Assembly: GCA_964577515.1 (NCBI GenBank)
Contig: CAZNZN010000001.1
Coordinates: forward strand, 876-64,875
Length of the DNA stretch: 64,000 nucleotides
Direction: 5' to 3'
Origin: an uncultured Candidatus Saccharibacteria bacterium
GTDB lineage: Bacteria; Patescibacteriota; Minisyncoccia; Phycocordibacterales; UBA9973
The notes below the pieces were generated by a model. The model worked only from the letters and a program-made list of their open reading frames with translations. It made no database searches and was not told the origin of the DNA. Positions within the stretch are counted from its first letter, which is position 1, and each line of letters begins with the position of its first letter. Shown in pieces: positions 1-58,136 of the stretch. A program made the translations under genes and the position numbers.

Positions 1-47
1 AAAAATGAGATAATGATAAAAATTTCATTTTCACACTTTTAAACCCA

Positions 48-395
48 TTGTTTATGTCGAAAACGACAAAAGACCTGGCACATGATTTCATAAAAAACCA
101 GGCAATAGATTGTGGAACGGTTAATAGCTACAGGCTCGCGACTGGAATCAGAGAAGCGGCTGAAGACTTCAGTCGGATCTCTGGGCACTTTGCTCGTTAC
201 ACCATCAACGAACAACCTGTATTTCTCGTCGATGAAGACAAGATGCCAAAGCAAACCGCAGACATCATCAAACCTGCAGCATTGCAACCAACCGGTTTCC
301 CGGGCATCAAATTTCTAAAGGAGTGTGCATGCGCACACATCCCCACAGATCCCGTCGTTGCCACTATCACCCCTGCGGGGTACGTGGCTGATTAA
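48..395 (+). CDS. hypothetical protein
   Basis: 115-aa ORF with no recognisable motif. A hairpin terminator follows it. Confidence 0.35.
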   Translation: MFMSKTTKDLAHDFIKNQAIDCGTVNSYRLATGIREAAEDFSRISGHFARYTINEQPVFLVDEDKMPKQTADIIKPAALQPTGFPGIKFLKECACAHIPTDPVVATITPAGYVAD

Positions 396-411
396 AAATT
401 TTTAACCAAAC

Positions 412-447
412 AAAAGACCCCGATTTTTTAATCGGGGTTCACTTTTT
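412..447. terminator. bidirectional intrinsic terminator
   Basis: Hairpin GACCCCGAT-TTTTTA-ATCGGGGTT flanked by A/T runs. It sits between the convergent ORF 48..395 and truB. Confidence 0.5.
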
Positions 448-1210
448 ATAGTATCTTTGTTCTGTTTATGTTTGTTACTACCGCAGGAATACCAAGGGCT
501 TCTCCTAAAAGAACACCGAGACTACGAATATACACCCCACTAGAAACAGTGAACCGTACACTTGCTACAGTGACGAAGTCCTCACTGTTTTGATACGAGG
601 CCCACTGCGTCAAAATAGCTTCTTGTCGAAAATCTCCTACCACCTTTTCAATAGTAGCAACTGCTTCATCTATAACACTTTCAACCTTTTTATCTTCTAA
701 TGAGAGCAATATGGCTTCATACACTTCTCCTTCTTTTACCGGAAGATCCGAAGGAAGTGTCCCAGCTCGCGCATGATGAAACAGTGGCACTCCATCAACA
801 GGTTTTGATGAGTATGGAGGATACCGAAGCGACTGCGTTCCAATAATGGCTTGCAGTACACTGATAAGTGCTTCCTTTGATATTTTTCTGGGCGCATACT
901 GCGTGAGTATACCCAACATATCATAAGTATCCGTGGCAATGCCAAACACGATAGTACACTCATATACCTTATCGTGAAGCAACCACTGATCTTTCTTTTT
1001 GCACGCTTCACCAAGAAGAAGAATCATCTCTCCTTGAGCCATAGGATCGAGACGCCCTGCATAAGTGACAGGAACGGATTCAGACAAAGAAAGCGTTCGA
1101 CGAAACCGCGTCACAAGCATTGCAAGTGTTTCTCCGGCGAACTTCTTTCCCAAAAAGACCCCTGGTGCGATTTGACTAAAGTCATCTTTTTCTGTATGAT
1201 TGTCTGACAT
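446..1210 (-). CDS. truB: tRNA pseudouridine(55) synthase TruB-like
   Basis: AGRLDPMAQGEMILLLGEACK matches the TruB catalytic motif (G-x-LDP-x-A-x-G...LGEATK). Confidence 0.7.
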   Translation of the reverse strand: MSDNHTEKDDFSQIAPGVFLGKKFAGETLAMLVTRFRRTLSLSESVPVTYAGRLDPMAQGEMILLLGEACKKKDQWLLHDKVYECTIVFGIATDTYDMLGILTQYAPRKISKEALISVLQAIIGTQSLRYPPYSSKPVDGVPLFHHARAGTLPSDLPVKEGEVYEAILLSLEDKKVESVIDEAVATIEKVVGDFRQEAILTQWASYQNSEDFVTVASVRFTVSSGVYIRSLGVLLGEALGIPAVVTNINRTKIL

Positions 1211-1234
1211 AAACGATACTCATACTATACAGCC

Positions 1235-1750
1235 TTGAAGGAACGAATCAACAATCAAATACGAGCAACTGAATTACGCGTTCTTGACGCAGAAGGAACA
1301 AATCTCGGTGTACTTCCTTTTACAGAAGCATTGCAAATGGCGCGCGACCAGGGAGTAGATCTGATTGAAATCAACGCTGATGCAAAACCCCCTATCGCAA
1401 AAATAATGGAGTTTGGGAAATACCAATACGAACTCAAAAAGAAAGCGCAGAAGGCAAAAGCTGGAGCAAAAACTACAGAAACAAAATCTATCCAAATCAA
1501 AGTTGGCACCGGGGATCACGATCTTGAACTTAAGGCGAAAACAGCATCAAAATGGCTCAAAGAAGGTCACCGTATCAAAGTAGAGCTCTTCCTTCGCGGG
1601 CGCATGAAAGGGATGAACCAAGAGTTCCTTAGAGAACGCCTTGATCGAGTGCTCCATTTTATCACTGAACACTACAAAATCGCTGAGCCTCACAAGCAAT
1701 CCCCTAAAGGTATCGCCATTGTGATAGAAAAAGACAAAGCAGCAAAATAA
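1235..1750 (+). CDS. infC: translation initiation factor IF-3
   Basis: Conserved infC-rpmI-rplT order. The start is TTG (IF-3 genes typically use non-ATG starts). Full-length IF-3 N and C domains are present (IRATELRVLDAEG...KVELFLRGRMKG). Confidence 0.9.
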   Translation: MKERINNQIRATELRVLDAEGTNLGVLPFTEALQMARDQGVDLIEINADAKPPIAKIMEFGKYQYELKKKAQKAKAGAKTTETKSIQIKVGTGDHDLELKAKTASKWLKEGHRIKVELFLRGRMKGMNQEFLRERLDRVLHFITEHYKIAEPHKQSPKGIAIVIEKDKAAK

Positions 1751-1824
1751 GGTTGACGGAACGCTATTTTTTAGTATTATAGAGGGACTTATTCTCGCAA
1801 ATCTGAGAGAAACGGTAGATATAT

Positions 1825-2010
1825 ATGAAAACCAACAAATCATACACAAAACGCCTAAAAGTGACCAAAACTGGCAAAATCCTTGGACGGAAGCCTGGTT
1901 TCAACCACTTCAACGCGAAGCAGTCACGAACCAGCCAGCTTGAGGGACGAAAGATGGTGGCGTTCCCTATGACAAACAAGGAAAAAGCGCAGTTTATCCC
2001 CCACAATTAA
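1825..2010 (+). CDS. rpmI: 50S ribosomal protein L35
   Basis: 61-aa basic protein (KRLKVTKTGKILGRKPGFNHF). It lies between infC and rplT. Confidence 0.85.
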   Translation: MKTNKSYTKRLKVTKTGKILGRKPGFNHFNAKQSRTSQLEGRKMVAFPMTNKEKAQFIPHN

Positions 2011-2029
2011 CACCATTTAGAGTTACCAT

Positions 2030-2374
2030 ATGACACGAGTAAAAGGAGGCGTCGTAGCCCTAAAAAAACGAAAAAATGTGCTTGCGATGACCAAAGGATA
2101 CCGCTTTGGACGATCAACAAAGACAGCACAAGCAACAGAAGCGATTGCACACGCAGGAACATACGCATTTGCACACCGACGTGACAAAAAAAGCGATAAG
2201 CGCCAACTCTGGCAAGTACGTATCAATGCTGCAGTTCGAGAACTTGGCATGAGCTACTCAAAGTTCATCGGTGCACTCAAAAAGACAAACATCGAACTCG
2301 ACCGAAAGATTCTCTCAGATATTGCGCACACAAACCCTGAAACATTCAAAAAAATCGTTTCAAAAATACAATAA
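2030..2374 (+). CDS. rplT: 50S ribosomal protein L20
   Basis: L20-like sequence (MTRVKGGVVALKKRKNVL...RRDKKSDKRQLWQVRINAA). Confidence 0.9.
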   Translation: MTRVKGGVVALKKRKNVLAMTKGYRFGRSTKTAQATEAIAHAGTYAFAHRRDKKSDKRQLWQVRINAAVRELGMSYSKFIGALKKTNIELDRKILSDIAHTNPETFKKIVSKIQ

Positions 2375-2376
2375 AT

Positions 2377-2405
2377 AAAAAACCTCTCATATGAGAGGTT
2401 TTTTA
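2377..2405. terminator. bidirectional intrinsic terminator shared by rplT and map
   Basis: Perfect palindrome AACCTCTCATATGAGAGGTT flanked by an A6 run and T-run. The map stop codon overlaps the T-run. Confidence 0.6.
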
Positions 2406-3164
2406 TTTCGTCAAAATTTCTGCTCCTGTTTCAGTGATGAGTACCGTATGTTCAAAATGTGCAGCTCGAGTCCCGTCTGCAGTCTTGTAAGTATACCCGT
2501 CTGCGGCAAGCACTACATCCTCCCCTCCAAGAGTAAACATGGGTTCTATCGCGATTACCATTCCAGGAACAAGCGCTTCCCCTTTTCCTGGCTTGCCAGT
2601 ATTTTGAACATAAGGGTCTTCATGAATATACCGTCCAACACCATGCCCTGAAAAACCATAGACAATACCTAGCCCCGCTTCTTCAGCAACTGATTGTATG
2701 GCGTATCCAATATCTCCGAGTCGTGCACCAGGAACGATAGCTTCTATACCTGCCTCAAGCGCTGTCTTTGTTGCGCTAAGAAGTTTTTTGTTTTTTGCAG
2801 AAATCTCTCCAACAGGAACAGTTACTGCGTGGTCGAGAAATACTCCTTCGTAGTTGAGCCCTAAATCAAGAGAGACAATATCTCCTTCTTTAAGGATTTT
2901 TTTTCCAGGGATACCGTGCACTACCTCACTATTCACTGACACACAAAGCGTTGAAGGATATGGAAATGTCGCCCCTTCCGGCTGGTAATCTAAAAACGCA
3001 GGAGTGTGCCCAGCTTTTTTGATACACTCGTATGCATATGCATCGAGCTCTGCTGTGCTTATCCCGGGTGCAACACGCTTTGCAACATCGCGCAAAATAG
3101 CAGCGAGGATAGGACCCCCTTTTTTCAATCGTGCTATTTCACTATCGGTTTTGATAATAATCAT
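2403..3164 (-). CDS. map: methionine aminopeptidase type I
   Basis: Type-I methionine aminopeptidase (MetAP) metal-ligand motifs: VVHGIP, DIVSLD, GHGVGRYIHE, IAIEPM. Confidence 0.9.
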   Translation of the reverse strand: MIIIKTDSEIARLKKGGPILAAILRDVAKRVAPGISTAELDAYAYECIKKAGHTPAFLDYQPEGATFPYPSTLCVSVNSEVVHGIPGKKILKEGDIVSLDLGLNYEGVFLDHAVTVPVGEISAKNKKLLSATKTALEAGIEAIVPGARLGDIGYAIQSVAEEAGLGIVYGFSGHGVGRYIHEDPYVQNTGKPGKGEALVPGMVIAIEPMFTLGGEDVVLAADGYTYKTADGTRAAHFEHTVLITETGAEILTK

Positions 3165-3167
3165 ATT

Positions 3168-3761
3168 TTATACAAGCCCCAATTCTTCACAGATGTCTCT
3201 GTGTACTGCCTCAATACTTTGTTCACCATGAATCGTATGAAAAATAACTTTCCCCGAATCTCTAAGTGATTCTATTGCAGGTACTACATTTTCATGGAAC
3301 CATTGTATCCTGTTCCACACTCGATGCTGATCTGTATCGTCTGGGCGCCCTCTTCCGAGTAAATGTTCATATGCCCATTCATCACTTACCTGCAGAAAAA
3401 ATATGTGTGGCTCCCACTCATAAAAATCAAAAGCAGATAATAATGCCGGGATCTCAATAGCAATACGAGGAGTGCCGTCAATAAAAACATACTGTTCTCC
3501 ATCATAGTCTTCTATCAGGCGATGCGACCATGCATGTACACCTAGGAATGCCGGCGGTAGTCCACCTTGCTCCATAAGTGCTTTGGTTTTTTGCGCAGTA
3601 AAAGATTTTTTTTGGACAAGTTCTCGAAACATGGAACCTGTTTCAAGATGGTACGTCCTAATAGAAGGATCTATTGATTGAAGCTTCTTTTGAAGCAATG
3701 CAACTTGCGTGCCCTTACCAGCACCAGAGTGACCGATAAAGATATACACGTTATGTTTCAT
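3168..3761 (-). CDS. adk: adenylate kinase
   Basis: P-loop GHSGAGKGTQ and DGTPR (DGFPR-like). Canonical secY-adk-map position. Confidence 0.8.
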   Translation of the reverse strand: MKHNVYIFIGHSGAGKGTQVALLQKKLQSIDPSIRTYHLETGSMFRELVQKKSFTAQKTKALMEQGGLPPAFLGVHAWSHRLIEDYDGEQYVFIDGTPRIAIEIPALLSAFDFYEWEPHIFFLQVSDEWAYEHLLGRGRPDDTDQHRVWNRIQWFHENVVPAIESLRDSGKVIFHTIHGEQSIEAVHRDICEELGLV

Positions 3762-3802
3762 AGGTACTAGCAGTATAGCACTACTCCCCTTTCATCAAGA
3801 GT

Positions 3803-5077
3803 TTAGTATTCGTGAAGAGCAACCTGAGCATCCACTTTTCGAATAAGGTCAATAACCACAGAAACAACAATAAGTAGTGATGTGCCCCCTACAGCAAAAG
3901 CAGTGATACCTGTTGTTGTTTGGACAACAATAGGAAGGACAGCGACGATACCAAGGAACAATGATCCCACAAGGGTGATACGAGTCACAATAGTTGCAAG
4001 ATGGCGCATCGTCGCTTCTCCTGGACGAATCCCAGGGATAAACGCACCGTTTTTTTGAAGATTTTCAGCTATTTGCTTTGGATCAAAAGTGACTGCAGTA
4101 TAAAAATAGGTAAAGAATACTACAAGCACAAAATATACTAGTGCATATAGCCATGTTGTCTGAAGGAACCATGTGAGTCCGTGTCCTATTGATTGGAGAG
4201 CAGTAGAAGATGCATTAATAAATACACCTGAAAGAAAACGAGGGAAGAGGAGCAGTGATGATGCAAAAATAATTGGCATCACACCAGCTTGTGCAAGACG
4301 AAGCGGAAGGTATGTTTCACCTCCCCCAGTTGAACGAATTCCGCGCACTGCTCGAGCATAAGTTACCTGCACGGGACGCTCTGCTTCATAGATATACACC
4401 ACTCCAGCAATCACAAGGATACCAATAACTATATAGGCGAGAAGCATTGGAAGTTGATCAATGGTGAAAGTAAAGAAGAACTGTGCCACTTTTGCCGGGA
4501 TAACAGAAAGAATCCCCGACATAATGATAAGTGAAGTCCCATTTCCAATACCAAATTCATTGATGAGTTCCCCAATCCAAAGAAGGAGAACAGAACCAGC
4601 GGTGATGATCACAATGTTGAAGATAATCCCTTGCAATGAGAGTGCATCGATAGCTCCTTGAGATTGGAAAAGCTTTATAAAACTAAACGCTTGCAACACA
4701 GCCAACGGCACCGAGAGTAACCGTGTGTATTGGTTGAAGCGCTTACGTCCTGCCTCACCGTTTTCCTGCATCATCTCCTTGATACTAGGTACCATCATAG
4801 AGAGAAGTTGCATAATAATAGAAGCAGTAATATATGGACCAACACCGAGCATCACAATAGAAAAGTTTGAAAGTCCCCCACCTGAGAGAGCATTAAAGAT
4901 ACCAAGAAGCTGGTTTCCTTGAAGAAACTGATTGAGCTTCAACGTATCAACTCCTGGAACTGGGATAGTCGCAAGAAGACGAAATACGAAAAGCGCTCCA
5001 ACAACAAAGAGTACTCTATTGCGAAGCGTTCTGTCAGTAACGATGGTCTTGAGTTTTGAGAAAAATGAATTCATCAC
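3803..5077 (-). CDS. secY: preprotein translocase subunit SecY
   Basis: 424 aa and polytopic. SecY signature regions are present. Located after rplO. Confidence 0.95.
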   Translation of the reverse strand: MMNSFFSKLKTIVTDRTLRNRVLFVVGALFVFRLLATIPVPGVDTLKLNQFLQGNQLLGIFNALSGGGLSNFSIVMLGVGPYITASIIMQLLSMMVPSIKEMMQENGEAGRKRFNQYTRLLSVPLAVLQAFSFIKLFQSQGAIDALSLQGIIFNIVIITAGSVLLLWIGELINEFGIGNGTSLIIMSGILSVIPAKVAQFFFTFTIDQLPMLLAYIVIGILVIAGVVYIYEAERPVQVTYARAVRGIRSTGGGETYLPLRLAQAGVMPIIFASSLLLFPRFLSGVFINASSTALQSIGHGLTWFLQTTWLYALVYFVLVVFFTYFYTAVTFDPKQIAENLQKNGAFIPGIRPGEATMRHLATIVTRITLVGSLFLGIVAVLPIVVQTTTGITAFAVGGTSLLIVVSVVIDLIRKVDAQVALHEY

Positions 5078-5156: not shown

Positions 5157-5597
5157 CTAGCCGTGTACGACACCACCTACTTTTTCTATCTTTGTCTTTG
5201 CGGTAGTTGAAACAGCGCAGTCATAAAACGCAACTGCCTTAGTAAGATCTCCTGTTGAAAGGATCTTTACAGCAGGAAGCTTTCCTCCCGTGCGAGTAAT
5301 AAGCCCCTTTGCGAAAAGCGCTGAAGGAGTCACCGCTTCATTTACCTCAAAAGCAGCATTGATAGCAGCAAGGTTTACTACTTGTGGTTTTATCTGGAAA
5401 GCCTTGTTTATGTTCTTTCCGCGACCTCGAAGTTTTGGAAGTTTTTTAATAGCATCTCGGAGTGCTGGTCGGATTTTATGTCCAGCACGTGCTTTTTGCC
5501 CTTTAGTACCACGACCAGCAGTTTTCCCTCGTTTACTTCCTCTTCCAACAAGTTTTTCTTTTTTATTTTTTGTTTTTCGTTTTAGTGTGTGCAACAT
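5157..5597 (-). CDS. rplO: 50S ribosomal protein L15
   Basis: Gly/Arg/Lys-rich N-terminus (RGSKRGKTAGRGTKGQK), typical of L15. Confidence 0.9.
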   Translation of the reverse strand: MLHTLKRKTKNKKEKLVGRGSKRGKTAGRGTKGQKARAGHKIRPALRDAIKKLPKLRGRGKNINKAFQIKPQVVNLAAINAAFEVNEAVTPSALFAKGLITRTGGKLPAVKILSTGDLTKAVAFYDCAVSTTAKTKIEKVGGVVHG

Positions 5598-5611
5598 ACC
5601 ATAACTCTTGA

Positions 5612-6208
5612 TTACTTCTTTTCTCCAGAAGTAGCAGTCTCTGTTGAAAGAGCTTCTGGCTTAGGTGTAGTAAATGTGTGTGGAACACCAACACGAGCAA
5701 GGGCCTTCATGGTAGCTCGTGCTGTATTGAGCTTGTTCTTGCTTCCTGAAAGAATCTTTGTAGTGACATCACGAACACCTGCAATATTCAAAATATCGCG
5801 AGCCGCTGCTCCAGATACAAGTCCTTTTCCACGATTTGGGAAGATGGTGATAGAAGAAGAACAATACTTAGCATCAACACCAAAAGGAATAGACTGTGTC
5901 TTTGTACGCTTGATCTTGATAGCATGCTTTTTTGCGTCTTTTAGTGCTTTTGCAATAGCAAGTGCTGTATCGTTCCCTTTTCCAGTACCAAGGCCAACGA
6001 CACCGTTTTTGTCCCCGATAATCATTGAAACTGCAAAACTCATGCGGCGCCCTCCAGCAACAACACGAGTAACGCGTCGAATATCAATAATCTTCTGATC
6101 GACATCTTTTACTCGATCCGCAAATGACTTAGCACCGTCTGGACGAGGACGTCGTGGTGCCCCAGAACGAGGTGATGATGGTCTAGTTGTAGTTGTTTTT
6201 TCTGTCAT
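5612..6208 (-). CDS. rpsE: 30S ribosomal protein S5
   Basis: S5 dsRBD/C-terminal motifs (VTRVVAGGRRMSFAVSMIIGDKNGVVGLGTGKG). Carries a Pro/Arg-rich N-terminal extension. Confidence 0.9.
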   Translation of the reverse strand: MTEKTTTTRPSSPRSGAPRRPRPDGAKSFADRVKDVDQKIIDIRRVTRVVAGGRRMSFAVSMIIGDKNGVVGLGTGKGNDTALAIAKALKDAKKHAIKIKRTKTQSIPFGVDAKYCSSSITIFPNRGKGLVSGAAARDILNIAGVRDVTTKILSGSKNKLNTARATMKALARVGVPHTFTTPKPEALSTETATSGEKK

Positions 6209-7128: not shown

Positions 7129-7533
7129 CTACCAGATCATAAATAATACTTCTCCACCGACCTGCTCCTTTCGAGCTTGTTTATCTGAAAGTATCCCCTT
7201 TGGAGTTGAAAATACTGTCATACCGTATCCACTTTTGATTGAGTGGATTTCTCGAACTCCCATGTATACTCGTCGAGATGGCTTTGAGACACGCTTCACA
7301 TCAGTGATTCGTGACTTCCCCATTGGGTATGCAAGTTCGATTTCGATAACGGGAACATTGTTCTTTTCTGTTTTCTTTGAGATATTTGCTACGAAACCGC
7401 TGTCTTTGAGACATTCAGCGATAGCAAATTTGATTTTTGAAAACGGAACAACCACTGATTTCTTAGAAACCATTGCTCCGTTTTTTATTGCAATAAGCAT
7501 GTTTGAAATAGGATCCATATGTGTTTTTACCAA
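7129..7533 (-). CDS. rpsH: 30S ribosomal protein S8
   Basis: S8 family ([25 protein letters not shown]). Confidence 0.9.
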
Positions 7534-7712
7534 GATGACTTACGAATGCCTGGAATCATTCCTTCGTTTGCGAGTTCGCGGAAACAGATACGACAAAGAC
7601 CGAAGTCTCTCATGTAGCCATGACGACGTCCGCAGCGAAAACAGCGGTTTACCGCTCGTGTACTATATTTGGGCGTCTTTTGAGAACGCGCAATAACTGA
7701 TGTTTTTGCCAT
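7527..7712 (-). CDS. rpsN: 30S ribosomal protein S14 type Z (zinc-binding)
   Basis: 61 aa with CxxC...CxxC ([20 protein letters not shown]). Confidence 0.9.
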
Positions 7713-7834
7713 AATTTGTTATATATCCTCTAAAATATCACCTCTTCCTTTCTAGGACATCGTTTTTCTCGATATACCAGAGAGATAGAAGGATTTCAAA
7801 GGAACTCAGGTATCCTACCAGAGAAGCCTTCCAA

Positions 7835-7870
7835 AGTCAAACAAAATCCCCCTACTCTGCAGGAGGGGGA
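7835..7870 (-). terminator. intrinsic terminator overlapping the stop of the inserted gene
   Basis: Hairpin TCCCCCT-(10 nt loop)-AGGGGGA. On the minus strand it is followed by TTTTGTTTG. Confidence 0.45.
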
Positions 7871-8478
7871 GCTGTTTTCTTCTTTTGTTTTCCTAACTGC
7901 AAGGAAATGCGCTCGCCCTGCATGACACTTTCATATGTCAATGAGGAGTTTGTATGTGCTGTCACAAACCCCATATCATTTTTAAACCTGTCCAGAAGCG
8001 CTCGTTTCTCTGGGTTTGAACTCTTCATAGTGAAAAGTTCGTGGGCCCTCTTCCTGCACAGATTTCCGATACGACCTTTTGCCTGTTCGACCGCAGCACT
8101 GTGAATTTTCTTCACCATCGCCACATCTTCAACAGAGTTTCGCTTATTGCCTACAAAAGCATCGTAACTCTGTAAAAAAGTAAAGAGTGCGTCAAAGGTA
8201 GCACAGGCATTGATTTGGGTAATAAAAAGACTTATTGCCCTGTCAACAAATTCGTATTGATTTGGGTTCTCTTTTTTGTACCGCAACCAAAAGTCAGCTA
8301 TTTGTTCATAACTGACTCTTCTTGGTGAAGCGTCAAAATGCAGTAACTGGCACACGTGCTCATACTTGATACGAGCGATAGTACGCTTTTGTTGCAGTAT
8401 TTTTGATATCAGAAAGAAAAACAAAAGTCCTATCGCCAAAACAATGGCGACAATGAAGATATATTCTCCGGGTTTCAT
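7852..8478 (-). CDS. hypothetical N-terminally membrane-anchored protein inserted between rpsN and rplE
   Basis: 208-aa ORF. One N-terminal TM helix (IFIVAIVLAIGLLFFFLI) and a charged cytoplasmic domain. No known motif. Confidence 0.55.
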   Translation of the reverse strand: MKPGEYIFIVAIVLAIGLLFFFLISKILQQKRTIARIKYEHVCQLLHFDASPRRVSYEQIADFWLRYKKENPNQYEFVDRAISLFITQINACATFDALFTFLQSYDAFVGNKRNSVEDVAMVKKIHSAAVEQAKGRIGNLCRKRAHELFTMKSSNPEKRALLDRFKNDMGFVTAHTNSSLTYESVMQGERISLQLGKQKKKTAPPPAE

Positions 8479-8522
8479 ATAAAGTAGTTTTGTCTGATAC
8501 TACAAGAAACCTCTAAAAAGTC

Positions 8523-8548
8523 AAAACCCTCTCATATGAGAGGGTTTT
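8523..8548. terminator. palindromic hairpin between rplE and the inserted gene
   Basis: AAAACCCTCTCATATGAGAGGGTTTT. Near-identical to the rplT/map terminator. Confidence 0.5.
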
Positions 8549-8559
8549 GTTAAAGAGTG

Positions 8560-9096
8560 TTATTTCTTGAAAGGGATACCGAGATGAGTGAAGTACGCAA
8601 GTGCTTCTTCTTTAGTTTTTGCAGAAGAGACAAGTGTCACTGCAAGACCAAACACGTCGCGGAGGTCTTCATCAGCAGTCTCTGGGAAGATAGTGTGCTC
8701 TTTGATACCGATAGTCATGTTTCCGATAGCATCAACTGATTTTGGATCAATTCCTCGGAAGTCTTTTGTTCGAGGAAGAGCGATGTTGATGAACTTATCC
8801 AAGAAGTGATACATACGTGCACCACGAAGAGTTACTGCAAGTCCGATAGGATCACCTGTTCGAGTTTTAAAACTTGCAACAGATTTCTTTGCTGTACGGA
8901 GTGAAGGTTTTTGCCCAGTGATTCGCGCAAGACGATCAGCAACAGTGTTGTTCTTCTCTCGATCTTTCTTCATTCCTGTTCCAGTCCCACTTGCTACAGT
9001 GATTTTAACAAGGTGCGGTGCTGACATCGGATTTTTGTACCCAAATTGCGCAAGCGCTTTCATTGTTTGTGATTCTTTTTCTTTAACTGTTTGCAT
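8560..9096 (-). CDS. rplE: 50S ribosomal protein L5
   Basis: L5 family (GLAVTLRGARMYHFLDKFINIALPRTKDFRG). Confidence 0.9.
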   Translation of the reverse strand: MQTVKEKESQTMKALAQFGYKNPMSAPHLVKITVASGTGTGMKKDREKNNTVADRLARITGQKPSLRTAKKSVASFKTRTGDPIGLAVTLRGARMYHFLDKFINIALPRTKDFRGIDPKSVDAIGNMTIGIKEHTIFPETADEDLRDVFGLAVTLVSSAKTKEEALAYFTHLGIPFKK

Positions 9097-12196: not shown

Positions 12197-12583
12197 CTAT
12201 AAGAAAAGCTTCGGGATGAAGATGATGCACCCGACGGCGATAGCTCCTGCGACCGTCAAAAGGACTGCTCCGGCTGCAACATCTTTGGTATCACGAGCGT
12301 ACGGGTGGTAATTGGGACTCGTAAGATCAATGTCAAACTCAAGTGCTGTATTAAAACCTTCTGCAGCAAGGACTGCTGCTATAGAAAGTACAATAAGACC
12401 CCACTCTGCTTCGCTGATATGAAACCAGAAGCCCAGAAAAATTGCTATAAGCGCAACAACACCATGCACCCATGCGTTGTGCTGTGTCTTGAAAATGACC
12501 ACCACCCCTCGAAGGGCATACCTTAAACTCCTCGCTCGTGCTATTATCGAAAATCGTTTTTTCTCTGAGAGTTTCTTTTCCAT
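12197..12583 (-). CDS. dgkA: diacylglycerol/undecaprenol kinase DgkA family
   Basis: 128 aa with 3 TM helices. DgkA motifs are present (EGFNTALE...[12 protein letters not shown]). Inserted between rpsS and rplB. Confidence 0.7.
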
Positions 12584-56189: not shown

Positions 56190-56260
56190 TGCGAGTACGG
56201 GGAATCGAACCCCGGTCTCAACCTTGGGAAGGTCGCATTCTACCACTAAACCATACTCGC
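56190..56260 (-). tRNA. tRNA-Gly (anticodon CCC), no encoded CCA
   Basis: Cloverleaf folded by hand: acceptor GCGAGTA/TACTCGC, anticodon stem CGACC/GGTTG, loop TTCCCAA, T-loop GGTTCGATTCC. Confidence 0.8.
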
Positions 56261-56344
56261 AAATGCCCTGTGGCACTATTTTACTCCCCTTTTATCAAAA
56301 ACAAAAATACTCTAGAAAATCTCTTCTAGAGTATTTTTGTTTTG

Positions 56345-56415
56345 TGCGGGATAGGGGAATCGGACTCCTGCTCTCAGTTTGGAAAACTGATGTTCTACCA
56401 TTAAACTAATCCCGC
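56345..56415 (-). tRNA. tRNA-Gly (anticodon TCC), no encoded CCA
   Basis: Acceptor GCGGGAT/ATCCCGC, anticodon stem TCAGT/ACTGA, loop TTTCCAA, T-loop AGTCCGATTCC. Confidence 0.8.
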
Positions 56416-56484
56416 GTATTGTTATCTTAACAAAAAGTCGTTCAAAATCAAAGACTTTTTAGGGGCGCTATTTTAAACCCTAAG

Positions 56485-56557
56485 TCGGGGTGCCGGGATT
56501 CGAACCCGGAGTCACCTGTTCCCAAAACAGGCATGTTAGCCGTTACACCACACCCCG
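56485..56557 (-). tRNA. tRNA-Pro (anticodon TGG), no encoded CCA
   Basis: Acceptor CGGGGTG/CACCCCG, D-loop with GG, anticodon stem CCTGT/ACAGG, loop TTTGGGA (G37), T-arm CCGGGTTCGAATCCCGG. Confidence 0.8.
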
Positions 56558-56639
56558 ACTTAGCTTTCAAAGACCCAGCACTATTCGTATAGGAAAGTAC
56601 GAAGCACACTATACTACAAATCCTCTCGATTTACCAGAG

Positions 56640-56996
56640 TTACTCAATGTCAAAAATCTCCACAATAGATCCCTGCCCTGAGAGAAGCACCACAATCCCC
56701 TGTATACGGTAATGAGAAATCTTTTTTGTTGCTACATAATACTGCGCAGATACATACACCTTCTGCATTTTTTGTTTTGTCAGGTTTTCTGCTGGGTTTA
56801 TCAAACCTCCCTGTTTCCCTGTCTTTACCTCAAAAAAATACCAAGTAATCCCTTTTTTCGCGACAACGTCAATCTCTCCATATCGATTGGCGACATTTCG
56901 CTCAATAACAACGAAGCCATTCTTTTTGAGGAAATCGCAGGCAGCACTCTCTCCTAGCTCCCCAATTTTTTGTGTTTTAGAAGTAAAATGTTTCAC
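56640..56996 (-). CDS. yraN: YraN-family (UPF0102) endonuclease-like protein
   Basis: GELGESAACDFLKKNGFVVIERNVANRYGEIDVVAKK...FFEVKTGK matches the YraN pattern. Confidence 0.7.
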   Translation of the reverse strand: MKHFTSKTQKIGELGESAACDFLKKNGFVVIERNVANRYGEIDVVAKKGITWYFFEVKTGKQGGLINPAENLTKQKMQKVYVSAQYYVATKKISHYRIQGIVVLLSGQGSIVEIFDIE

Positions 56997-57267
56997 GTGA
57001 AACGTCTCCCCTCTCTTGTTTCATATGAAACAAATTAGGGCTTATGTACAAAGGTTTTTTAGCAACAAATCATAAGGACACTTCTAGTATACGCCATAAA
57101 AAGGCGTCTGTTATCCTATCTACACACACACTTATCCACAGTTTTGTCAAAAAAACTGAAAAATAAGGTGAAAAACAACATATACGACGCCTTTTGTCTA
57201 AAAGACGTCTCATAGCATGGTGCGTACCTATATAAAAAGCCCCTTATCAGGGACTTTTTATATTTTG

Positions 57268-57338
57268 TGCGGCTACAGAGAATCGAACTCTGGTCTCGTC
57301 CTTGGCAAGGACGCATTCTACCACTAAACCATAACCGC
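57268..57338 (-). tRNA. tRNA-Gly (anticodon GCC), no encoded CCA
   Basis: Acceptor GCGGTTA/TAGCCGC, anticodon stem CGTCC/GGACG, loop TTGCCAA, T-loop AGTTCGATTCT. Confidence 0.8.
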
Positions 57339-57998
57339 TTATTCAAAGTTTTCATCCTGCGCTAAAGAAATCCATTTCATGATCTTTTTCTTTAAAACAG
57401 TACTTGAGATTATACTCATACCAGTACCATATTGCAATCTCCCAACCTCCTCCTTCCCCTTAATGATCTGAGTTTTATAAAACTGTTCTCTGGAAATACC
57501 TAAAAGGTTCGCCCACACTTCCTTGCACAAGGATTCGTTCAAAGCAGAAGAGATACTTAGACATACCCGCAACTTCTCCCTTGAAATACCTAGATATTTC
57601 AAGGAAAAAGCTAAAAAAATCTTATGGAGAGAAAAGTCGGTATTTGTAATCCTTACAAAATGTCTTGACTGCCTATCTCCTTCTCCTGCATAAATCATAA
57701 GCCCTGCCCAAAATAAGGGGTCTTTTCGATATAGTTGGTACTCTTTCTCCGCTTCTTTTTCAACAAGAGCATACTGGTACTGCAACTTAAGTTTCCGTAC
57801 CATGTTCATCCGCTCCATCCGTTCTTTTGAACCGCCTATATTTTTTTTGGAATGTTCTGAAGAAAGCTGTTTTGACCATTCTTCCCCCTTAAACCAGGTA
57901 GAAAGTGTTGCACGTGAAACTCCCGTATCGCGGTGTATTTCTCGGTAGGTTCTTCCCTCTCTACGCAATTGGAATATTCTTTGCTTATCAGGTCTCAT
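57339..57998 (-). CDS. HTH-domain protein with a LAGLIDADG-like motif (possible homing-endonuclease relic)
   Basis: N-terminal HTH (TYREIHRDTGVSRATLSTWFK) and FWAGLMIYAGEGD (LAGLIDGDG-like). The stop codon abuts the 5' end of tRNA-Gly(GCC). Confidence 0.35.
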   Translation of the reverse strand: MRPDKQRIFQLRREGRTYREIHRDTGVSRATLSTWFKGEEWSKQLSSEHSKKNIGGSKERMERMNMVRKLKLQYQYALVEKEAEKEYQLYRKDPLFWAGLMIYAGEGDRQSRHFVRITNTDFSLHKIFLAFSLKYLGISREKLRVCLSISSALNESLCKEVWANLLGISREQFYKTQIIKGKEEVGRLQYGTGMSIISSTVLKKKIMKWISLAQDENFE

Positions 57999-58064
57999 TA
58001 TTTATAAGTATAATACGACGGTTTTATTTTACAAATCTAACGTCTTGTACTATTATTAAGACAC

Positions 58065-58136
58065 GCACCTATGGTGAAATGGATATCACAGCGGTCTTCG
58101 GAACCGTTATTCTGGGTTCGAGTCCTGGTAGGTGCA
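58065..58136 (+). tRNA. tRNA-Arg (anticodon TCG), no encoded CCA
   Basis: Acceptor GCACCTA/TAGGTGC, D-stem GTGA/TCAC, anticodon stem GCGGT/ACCGT, loop CTTCGGA, T-loop GGTTCGAGTCC. Confidence 0.75.

Follow-up and report, generated by a model that had tools for sequence, protein, structure and literature searches.

ORF208, a lineage-restricted membrane-protein gene in a variable slot between rplE and rpsN of a patescibacterial ribosomal protein cluster

The ribosomal protein genes on a 64,000-nt stretch of DNA from an uncultured Candidatus Saccharibacteria bacterium (contig CAZNZN010000001.1; the whole stretch is termed the window) include a non-ribosomal open reading frame (ORF) placed between rplE and rpsN. 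This gene, here called ORF208, is located at 7852..8478 on the minus strand. It has an ATG start and a TAG stop, is restricted to one lineage, and encodes a predicted single-pass membrane protein of 208 amino acids with an isoelectric point (pI) of 9.6. ORF208 is probably an autonomous monocistronic cassette, a lineage-restricted gene located in an inter-operon slot that is itself lineage-wide. In the lineage the junction of rplE and rpsN is an operon boundary and a variable slot for accessory genes, and ORF208 is one of many occupants.

ORF208 is a genuine protein-coding gene, belonging to a small and fast-evolving family of one sub-lineage of the Patescibacteria (Paceibacteria/Nomurabacteria-like). 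A word-indexed search of 5.8 billion proteins returned one relative (P0001) that has 94% amino acid identity to ORF208, and is encoded between rplE and rpsN on two contigs (L001 and L002) having 96-97% nucleotide identity to the window. Five further family clusters were found when 1.84 billion representatives were scanned exhaustively with HMMER, and two more by profile search; the family comprises only nine sequence clusters from the about 1.8-5.8 billion proteins searched. The proteins are 208-232 amino acids in length and share a common architecture, with an N-terminal hydrophobic helix followed by a stretch rich in lysine and arginine. There are nine invariant columns in the alignment of seven members, eight of them besides the start methionine, corresponding to C43, L46, W64, F77, L140, E157, K158 and E189. 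The invariant cysteine is located ~15 residues past the transmembrane (TM) helix in the context C-x-(L/M/I)-L.

Compared with the two contigs of 96-97% identity, ORF208 has a ratio of nonsynonymous to synonymous substitution (dN/dS) of 0.30-0.36. Indels and stop codons are absent, and both frame and length are kept. In the same comparison the neighbouring ribosomal protein genes mostly have dN/dS values of 0-0.12 (rpmC ~0.2). The first 14 codons of ORF208 hold half of the differences, and the substitutions in the TM helix relative to P0001 are all hydrophobic-to-hydrophobic. The gene has a GC content of 0.419, the genome background being 0.441 ± 0.025. The sequence-only reading that preceded this analysis had described a 208-amino-acid, non-ribosomal, membrane-anchored gene; its position and neighbours are as given there, and dN/dS, the family and the predicted fold show that the gene is real.

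All of the family members with a readable context sit between rplE and rpsN (loci L001, L002, L083, L084, L005/L007, L030, L086 and L087/L088), and for L085 this can be seen at least on the downstream side. The other family lineages have L5 proteins 71-87% identical and S14 proteins 92-98% identical to those of the window, with just 19-35% identity in the family protein; in one comparison the family protein is 32% identical where S14 is 98% identical. In pairwise DNA alignments the flanks have 75-84% identity, and the similarity ends at the edges of the slot. Either fast evolution or the swapping of alleles in the slot could explain why the family has diverged so much more than its flanks. ORF208 is an old resident of the slot and not a recent arrival, because homologues of 19-35% identity hold the same slot in lineages where L5 has diverged to 71-87%.

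A second gene accompanies the family in part of its range. An Rce1-like (CPBP) intramembrane protease is encoded between rplE and the family gene in L005/L007, L086 and L087/L088, representing three or four lineages (the protease genes are at L005 4631-5251, L007 4237-4857, L086 2313-2924 and L087 2272-2925). In L003, L004, L006 and L032 a CPBP gene is present in the slot with no family gene. L005 and L006 both derive from the metagenome-assembled genome JADZEV01 (isolate SJ839), which has two S10-spc clusters of ~78% nucleotide identity with differing slot contents; this bin probably mixes two organisms.

The gap between rplE and rpsN was compared in the rplE neighbourhoods of the 80 best-matching species representatives, having L5 identities of 58-80%. 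These are Patescibacteria, labelled as Paceibacteria, Nomurabacteria or (probably loosely) Saccharibacteria. In 56 of the 80 rpsN is located no more than 4 kb from rplE, with a gap of 101-3770 nt (median 925). Fourteen of the 56 gaps are shorter than 330 nt, and 42 contain one or more genes; at ten further loci rpsN was not found within 4 kb. The junction had previously been taken to be one of the most conserved adjacencies in bacteria, but in this lineage it is usually occupied. The occupied gaps hold 0.3-3.8 kb of diverse genes, mostly encoding membrane proteins. Their 58 ORFs of at least 100 amino acids fall into 40 sequence clusters; 49 have the same orientation as the ribosomal genes and 38 encode hydrophobic segments. 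The Pfam content includes PG_binding_1, Rce1-like CPBP proteases, DUF2177 membrane proteins, an endosialidase chaperone, a type IV secretion system (T4SS) coupling protein and pilin-like N-methyl domains, amongst others. Most of the 80 relatives lack the ORF208 family, their slot being empty or containing other genes. Comparison by hhalign of the family profile with 46 other slot proteins of 120-290 amino acids gave one weak candidate (L023, 211 amino acids, probability 26%), so that the other slot proteins comprising a TM helix and ~180 amino acids are not demonstrably homologous to the ORF208 family. The variable occupancy of the gap is probably explained by a split of the spc cluster after rplE in this lineage. 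The S10-spc cluster is the archetype of a frozen gene order, and here one of its tightest junctions forms an operon boundary and a variable slot throughout a lineage of the candidate phyla radiation (CPR).

Terminator-like hairpins are found on both sides of ORF208. A hairpin was called a terminator where it is GC-rich, is followed directly by a U-tract and is located past a stop codon. The first (T1; 8522..8549, minus strand) lies 3′ of rplE, and is a perfect 28-nt palindrome that forms a 12-bp stem (free energy -19.6 kcal/mol, z = -6.5) followed by ACUUUUU. The stem contains a compensatory change of A-U to G-C between the window and L001/L002. The second (T2; 7848..7866, minus strand) overlaps the TAG stop codon of ORF208, and has a free energy of -15.3 kcal/mol (z = -2.0), followed by AUUUUGUUUG; it is identical in L001/L002. 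Between 7000 and 9500 there are nine terminator-like sites, compared with 1.9 expected from shuffled sequences. T1 and T2 are thus predicted to be intrinsic terminators. A hairpin with a T-tract is present 3′ of rplE in 68 of 81 sequences (the window plus the fetched loci), and this includes relatives with no insert.

Each hairpin is directly followed by a promoter-like site. For these, we looked for -35 and -10 hexamers separated by 16-18 nt and conserved at orthologous positions. The site preceding ORF208 (8497..8524, minus strand) has a -35 element TTGACT that overlaps the U-tract of T1, a 16-nt spacer and a -10 element TAGTAT. The ATG follows the -10 element after 18 nt, and no Shine-Dalgarno sequence precedes it. 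The site preceding the rpsN-rpsH unit (7812..7840, minus strand) comprises TTGACT, 17 nt and TAGGAT, and was flagged by the scan as TG-extended. Both match the sigma-70 consensus at 9 of 12 positions and are predicted to be promoters of sigma-70 type; they are two of the six matches to the strict pattern in the 64-kb window, where 2.2 would be expected. An element TTGACTTTT-N17-TAnnAT is located 5′ of nearly all the family genes despite protein identities of 19-35%. Its -10 box is mostly 18-20 nt from the start codon, no Shine-Dalgarno sequence is present, and a hairpin plus T-tract lies 3′ of the gene in most of the family members shown. Where CPBP and ORF208-family genes are residents of the slot, each has its own hairpin and TTGACTTTT...TAnnAT promoter. 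In many relatives a TTGAC(T/C)-N17-TAGGAT-like promoter lies 5′ of the rpsN leader (described below) or of rpsN, with or without cargo. The idea that the two flanking promoters are a duplication made by the insertion of ORF208 was dropped as unprovable, the same consensus being found at every cassette in the relatives.

The two hairpins had been seen in the sequence-only reading, which took ORF208 to be an autonomous transcription unit. Both are present, the one over the stop codon being the weaker, and the proposal is upheld by a putative promoter and terminators that are conserved around the family members in kind and not in sequence. The promoter-like site past each hairpin, and the structured leader that precedes rpsN, had escaped that reading.

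The ORF208 protein begins with a hydrophobic N-terminal TM helix at about residues 7-29 (8392..8460, minus strand), a segment that is also flagged by hydropathy scans in close homologues. The remainder (7855..8391, minus strand) is an α-solenoid domain of eight helices, predicted to be cytoplasmic, with a C-terminal tail that is rich in lysine and contains proline. AlphaFold2 modelling from the single sequence gave a predicted local distance difference test score (pLDDT) of 83.5, and places the TM region within a helix spanning residues 3-45. For residues 30-208 with the seven-sequence alignment, the pLDDT is 87.7, with a predicted TM-score (pTM) of 0.79 and eight helices. The proteins of the family are basic, with pI values of 9.3-9.6. 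The pattern of charges around the TM helix recurs throughout the family; in most members there is one lysine or arginine, or none, before the helix and five after it, and by the positive-inside rule the predicted topology is N-out/C-in (type Ib).

The domain has no recognized motif, as had been noted from the sequence. There is no significant match to Pfam (the best being HipA_C, E = 0.004, with 17 bits against a cut-off of 30.5), and the weak Pfam matches are inconsistent from one family member to another. The best score in NCBIfam is 16 bits against a threshold of 45, and PHROGs and PADLOC gave nothing consistent for ORF208 or its homologues. Neither phmmer nor profile searches matched the family to sequences in the PDB. 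A structure search had been proposed; Foldseek comparison with the PDB and BFVD gave nothing below E = 1e-3, only generic helical repeats, and no fold resembling a known ribosome-binding factor was found in these structure searches. The domain is a generic eight-helix solenoid like those of VHS, ENTH and CID domains. Our best guess, made with much less confidence than the architecture of the locus, is that ORF208 may be tethered to the membrane as the adaptor or scaffold of a partner. The family is one more uncharacterized membrane protein of episymbiotic bacteria, with no present bearing on ribosome biology.

Between its promoter-like site and its start codon, rpsN is preceded by a structured 5′ leader RNA of 88 nt (7721..7808, minus strand). 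This folds into an extended hairpin (P1-P3) whose internal loop, AAUCC / G-N-GAUAUU, is invariant, and has a minimum free energy of -29.2 kcal/mol (z -3.6). A purine-rich AGAGGA, 13 nt upstream of the rpsN ATG, is paired in the basal helix. A covariance model (R1) built from 25 relatives matches just once per locus in ~45 loci, always directly 5′ of rpsN whatever the cargo, and once in the 64-kb window. The model alignment has 92% of its cells paired, with changes on both sides in 16 of 20 pairs. The covariation score is 0.60, compared with 0.08-0.16 for slid-partner controls, although the alignment was fitted to the model and the values are consequently somewhat inflated. Rfam contains no family for the leader, and at the gathering score the window matches tRNAs only; in the region 7650-8600 the matches are at chance level, and most of them, including the highest-scoring, are centred on the terminator palindrome. 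No rpsN or rpsH leader is listed in a survey of ribosomal protein leaders (PMC7247131), and our literature search found no description of the rplE|rpsN slot or of an rpsN leader in the CPR.

The internal loop resembles the binding site of ribosomal protein S8. S8 recognizes helix 21 of 16S rRNA via an A595-(A596-U644) triple, a (G597-C643)-U641 triple and the invariant A642 (PMC4176348). In the Escherichia coli core that was compared, A595-A596-G597-U598-C599 lies opposite G639-A640-U641-A642-C643-U644. The invariant loop of the leader is 5′-(N)AAUC-3′ opposite 5′-GAUAUU-3′, giving a core AAAUC/GAUAUU compared with AAGUC/GAUACU in E. coli. In this register the leader keeps A596-U644, U598-A640 and C599-G639, together with the bulged U641 and A642. 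The G-C pair 597-643 is replaced in a compensatory manner by A-U, and 596-644 covaries between A-U and G-C, the latter found in distant members; U641 and U643 are both changed to C in two lineages. The gene for S8 is itself the second in the unit that the leader precedes. We lean towards the view that the core of the leader mimics the S8 site of helix 21, and that S8 may bind it. RNAalifold applied to a MAFFT alignment missed P1 and put the core into another register; the covariance-model alignment and the covariation of 596-644 favour the helix-21-like register. The leader is a testable candidate for a new ribosomal leader, absent from Rfam, from a phylum whose gene regulation is hardly known at all.

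There is little in the surroundings of ORF208 to indicate mobility. A repeat search gave no meaningful direct or inverted repeats flanking the gene, the phage and plasmid collections searched by tblastn contained no match, and the leading Pfam families of the slot genes include no transposase or integrase. ORF208 does not have the character of a mobile element or an integron-like cassette, and all of its copies are at one locus. The window and the 96%-identical L001 differ at 28 positions in the 200 nt between 8390 and 8589, compared with 0-5 per 100 nt in the rest of the cluster. The segment takes in the rplE stop codon, the loop of the terminator, the promoter of ORF208 and the 14 codons at the start of that gene. 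In the same pair of sequences secY (3800..4900) has a synonymous divergence (dS) of 0.50, where neighbouring genes have ~0.04-0.10. The two spikes of divergence, at the rplE/ORF208 boundary and in secY, suggest mosaic recombination within the population.

Other explanations of ORF208 have to be set against these results. It is scarcely credible that it is a spurious ORF within a long non-coding spacer. This would fit the lack of a Shine-Dalgarno sequence upstream of the ATG, and that of a known domain or database annotation; yet a stop-free frame is conserved across nine diverged lineages with dN/dS below 1, the TM-helix substitutions are conservative, the AlphaFold2 fold is of high confidence and the distance from the -10 box to the start codon is conserved. 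The suggestion in the sequence-only reading that ORF208 might be a recently acquired passenger, whether mobile or foreign, has become very improbable. The gene does interrupt an otherwise conserved cluster, and there is a spike of divergence at the rplE/ORF208 boundary between close strains. However, relatives of 96-97% nucleotide identity carry it with 94% amino acid identity, and homologues of 19-35% identity occupy the same slot across species-level lineages. Moreover the GC content is typical of the genome, repeats and the enzymes of transposition or integration were not found in the searches described above, and there is no similarity to phage, plasmid or PHROG sequences.

The same reading proposed a ribosome- or translation-associated factor, for which position was the sole evidence. 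ORF208 might for example be a membrane-anchored tether for translating ribosomes, kept next to the ribosomal protein genes for that purpose. Every member of the family is indeed found inside a ribosomal gene cluster, and the cytoplasmic domain is basic with a lysine-rich tail. Nevertheless we consider the proposal improbable. ORF208 has a putative promoter of its own and appears insulated by terminators, and in relatives 40 or more unrelated clusters are found at this position, among them peptidoglycan-binding, pilin-like and T4SS proteins; in fourteen the slot is empty. The family is tiny, it diverges far faster than any ribosomal protein, and the structure searches gave no fold like that of a known ribosome-binding factor. 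A ribosome factor of a ribosomal protein operon would be expected to be co-transcribed with it and to be conserved wherever the operon is conserved, and ORF208 seems to be neither. An association with the CPBP/Rce1-like ('Abi') protease is less remote, though still unlikely. Here ORF208 would be the partner, substrate or regulator of the protease in a two-gene membrane module, acting for example in immunity-like or proteolytic signalling, with the protease lost from the slot in the lineage of the window. The order rplE-CPBP-X-rpsN in L005/L007, L086 and L087/L088, and the presence of CPBP alone in the slots of L003, L004, L006 and L032, are in keeping with such a module. So too are the membrane character of both proteins, the invariant cysteine following the TM helix, the fast evolution of the family and the variability of the slot. 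On the other hand both genes have, by consensus, a terminator and a promoter of their own, and four lineages (window/L001, L083, L084 and L030) have the family gene with no CPBP at the slot. No CPBP gene was detected by tblastn anywhere in the 64-kb window, PADLOC gave no match, and shared descent of the slot contents can explain the adjacency.

We therefore prefer the autonomous cassette in an inter-operon slot, in which the locus would be organized as follows. The spc cluster would be split after rplE, with the upstream unit ending at an intrinsic terminator and the downstream unit rpsN-rpsH-rplF... starting from its own promoter of sigma-70 type, where the leader presumably lets S8 repress the translation of rpsN-rpsH. 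ORF208 would be transcribed from its own promoter with a short leader lacking a Shine-Dalgarno sequence, and terminated before the rpsN promoter. As a boundary between operons, the junction can accommodate genes that have no polar effect on ribosomal protein synthesis; this would apply to any gene in the slot between the terminator and the rpsN promoter, and across the lineage the slot has been filled by diverse genes, mostly co-oriented and mostly encoding membrane proteins. The product of ORF208 would display its basic eight-helix α-solenoid and lysine-rich tail on the cytoplasmic face of the membrane.

Several observations weigh against this organization or parts of it. The promoters and terminators are consensus matches only, and T2 is weak (z -2.0), so that transcription may continue from rplE through ORF208 and into rpsN. 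The topology of the protein is taken from the positive-inside rule only. The confinement of the family to the ribosomal locus could still mean a functional link. In the leader, position 595 is variable and there is an extra bulged nucleotide beside the core.

A more speculative extension of the autonomous-cassette organization, which we put forward tentatively and would not favour as it stands, is that the slot acts as a cargo bay serviced by recombination. It would have been enabled by the split of spc together with the new promoter and the S8-mimic leader, and genes for membrane proteins and host interaction would be swapped in and out of it. ORF208 and CPBP would then form an ancestral membrane module, possibly contacting the machinery of translation or secretion for which the neighbouring genes code.

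The surrounding cluster is on the minus strand, in the order rplB, dgkA-like, rpsS, rplV, rpsC, rplP, rpmC, rpsQ, rplN, rplX, rplE, ORF208, rpsN, rpsH, rplF, rplR, rpsE, rplO, secY, adk and map. rplE (L5; 8560..9096, minus strand) is the gene with which the upstream ribosomal transcription unit ends, and its 99%-identical L001 orthologue contains the Pfam domains Ribosomal_L5 and L5_C. rpsN (S14; 7527..7712, minus strand) is the first gene of the downstream unit, encoding 61 amino acids with a CxxC...CxxC zinc ribbon; the identical L001 product matches Pfam Ribosomal_S14. It is followed by rpsH (7129..7518, minus strand), encoding S8, the presumed ligand of the leader; the L001 call has 129 amino acids and matches Pfam Ribosomal_S8.

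The cluster contains a second non-ribosomal insertion, a dgkA-like gene (12197..12583, minus strand) between rplB and rpsS that matches DAGK_prokar in Pfam (E = 3e-32; diacylglycerol/undecaprenol kinase-like). In contrast to the contents of the rplE|rpsN slot it is conserved, and was detected by tblastn upstream of rplE in ~27 relatives with 47-81% identity. The spacing of rpsE and rplO is just 14 nt (5597..5612), so there is no rpmD (L30) gene between them; L30 is missing from many CPR bacteria. Downstream of secY-adk-map lie rplT-rpmI-infC on the opposite strand (window 1..3800; L001 8312..9451) in place of infA-rpmJ-rpsM-rpsK-rpoA-rplQ, and thus the alpha operon is not contiguous at this cluster. 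Five tRNA genes are clustered at 56190..58136; all are on the minus strand but for one plus-strand gene.

The predicted architecture of the ORF208 protein can be compared with ZipA and EzrA. These are bitopic membrane tethers of type Ib, an arrangement suited to the anchoring of a cytoplasmic partner to the membrane. ORF208 would have the same topology: its N-terminus would be short and outside the cytoplasm, and a single TM helix would lead into a helical domain in the cytoplasm. However, no similarity of sequence or fold to these proteins was detected, and the resemblance is an analogy only.

The slot has some of the character of an integration hotspot, in which an interval between conserved core genes gathers diverse accessory genes across related genomes. 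The rplE|rpsN interval is likewise flanked by conserved core genes and collects diverse accessory genes. It differs in that its flanks are ribosomal protein genes and it lacks the hallmarks of integrases, tRNAs or mobile elements, and in that its cargo consists of single short cassettes, each apparently having its own promoter and terminator. Closer to the present case, the ribosomal supercluster has typically gained inserted genes at sites between operons (PMC8046335). As in the published examples, a few non-ribosomal genes are located at a boundary between transcription units, with the content later lost or changed in descendants. Unlike those examples, the boundary in the lineage of the window lies inside the normal spc operon, and would arise from a lineage-specific terminator, promoter and leader. 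Moreover occupancy is far more variable here, with 40 clusters and 42 occupied loci compared with single events in Gammaproteobacteria and Bacilli (PMC8046335).

The closest parallel to the leader is provided by the spc operon of E. coli, which is autoregulated by S8 through an mRNA target that mimics helix 21 of 16S rRNA (PMC4176348; Cerretti et al. 1988, cited there). In both cases the mRNA of the operon encoding S8 carries the elements of the helix 21 core, that is A596-U644, U598-A640, C599-G639, the bulged U641 and A642. The rpsN leader differs from the E. coli RNA in having A-U rather than G-C at 597-643, a variable position 595 and an extra bulge, and in having no Rfam family. The location is also different. 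S8 binds at the beginning of rplE in E. coli; in the lineage of the window its site would be placed in the 5′ leader before rpsN, following the new promoter. If this assignment is correct, the mimic before rpsN would be an apparently independent solution to the problem that E. coli solves at rplE.

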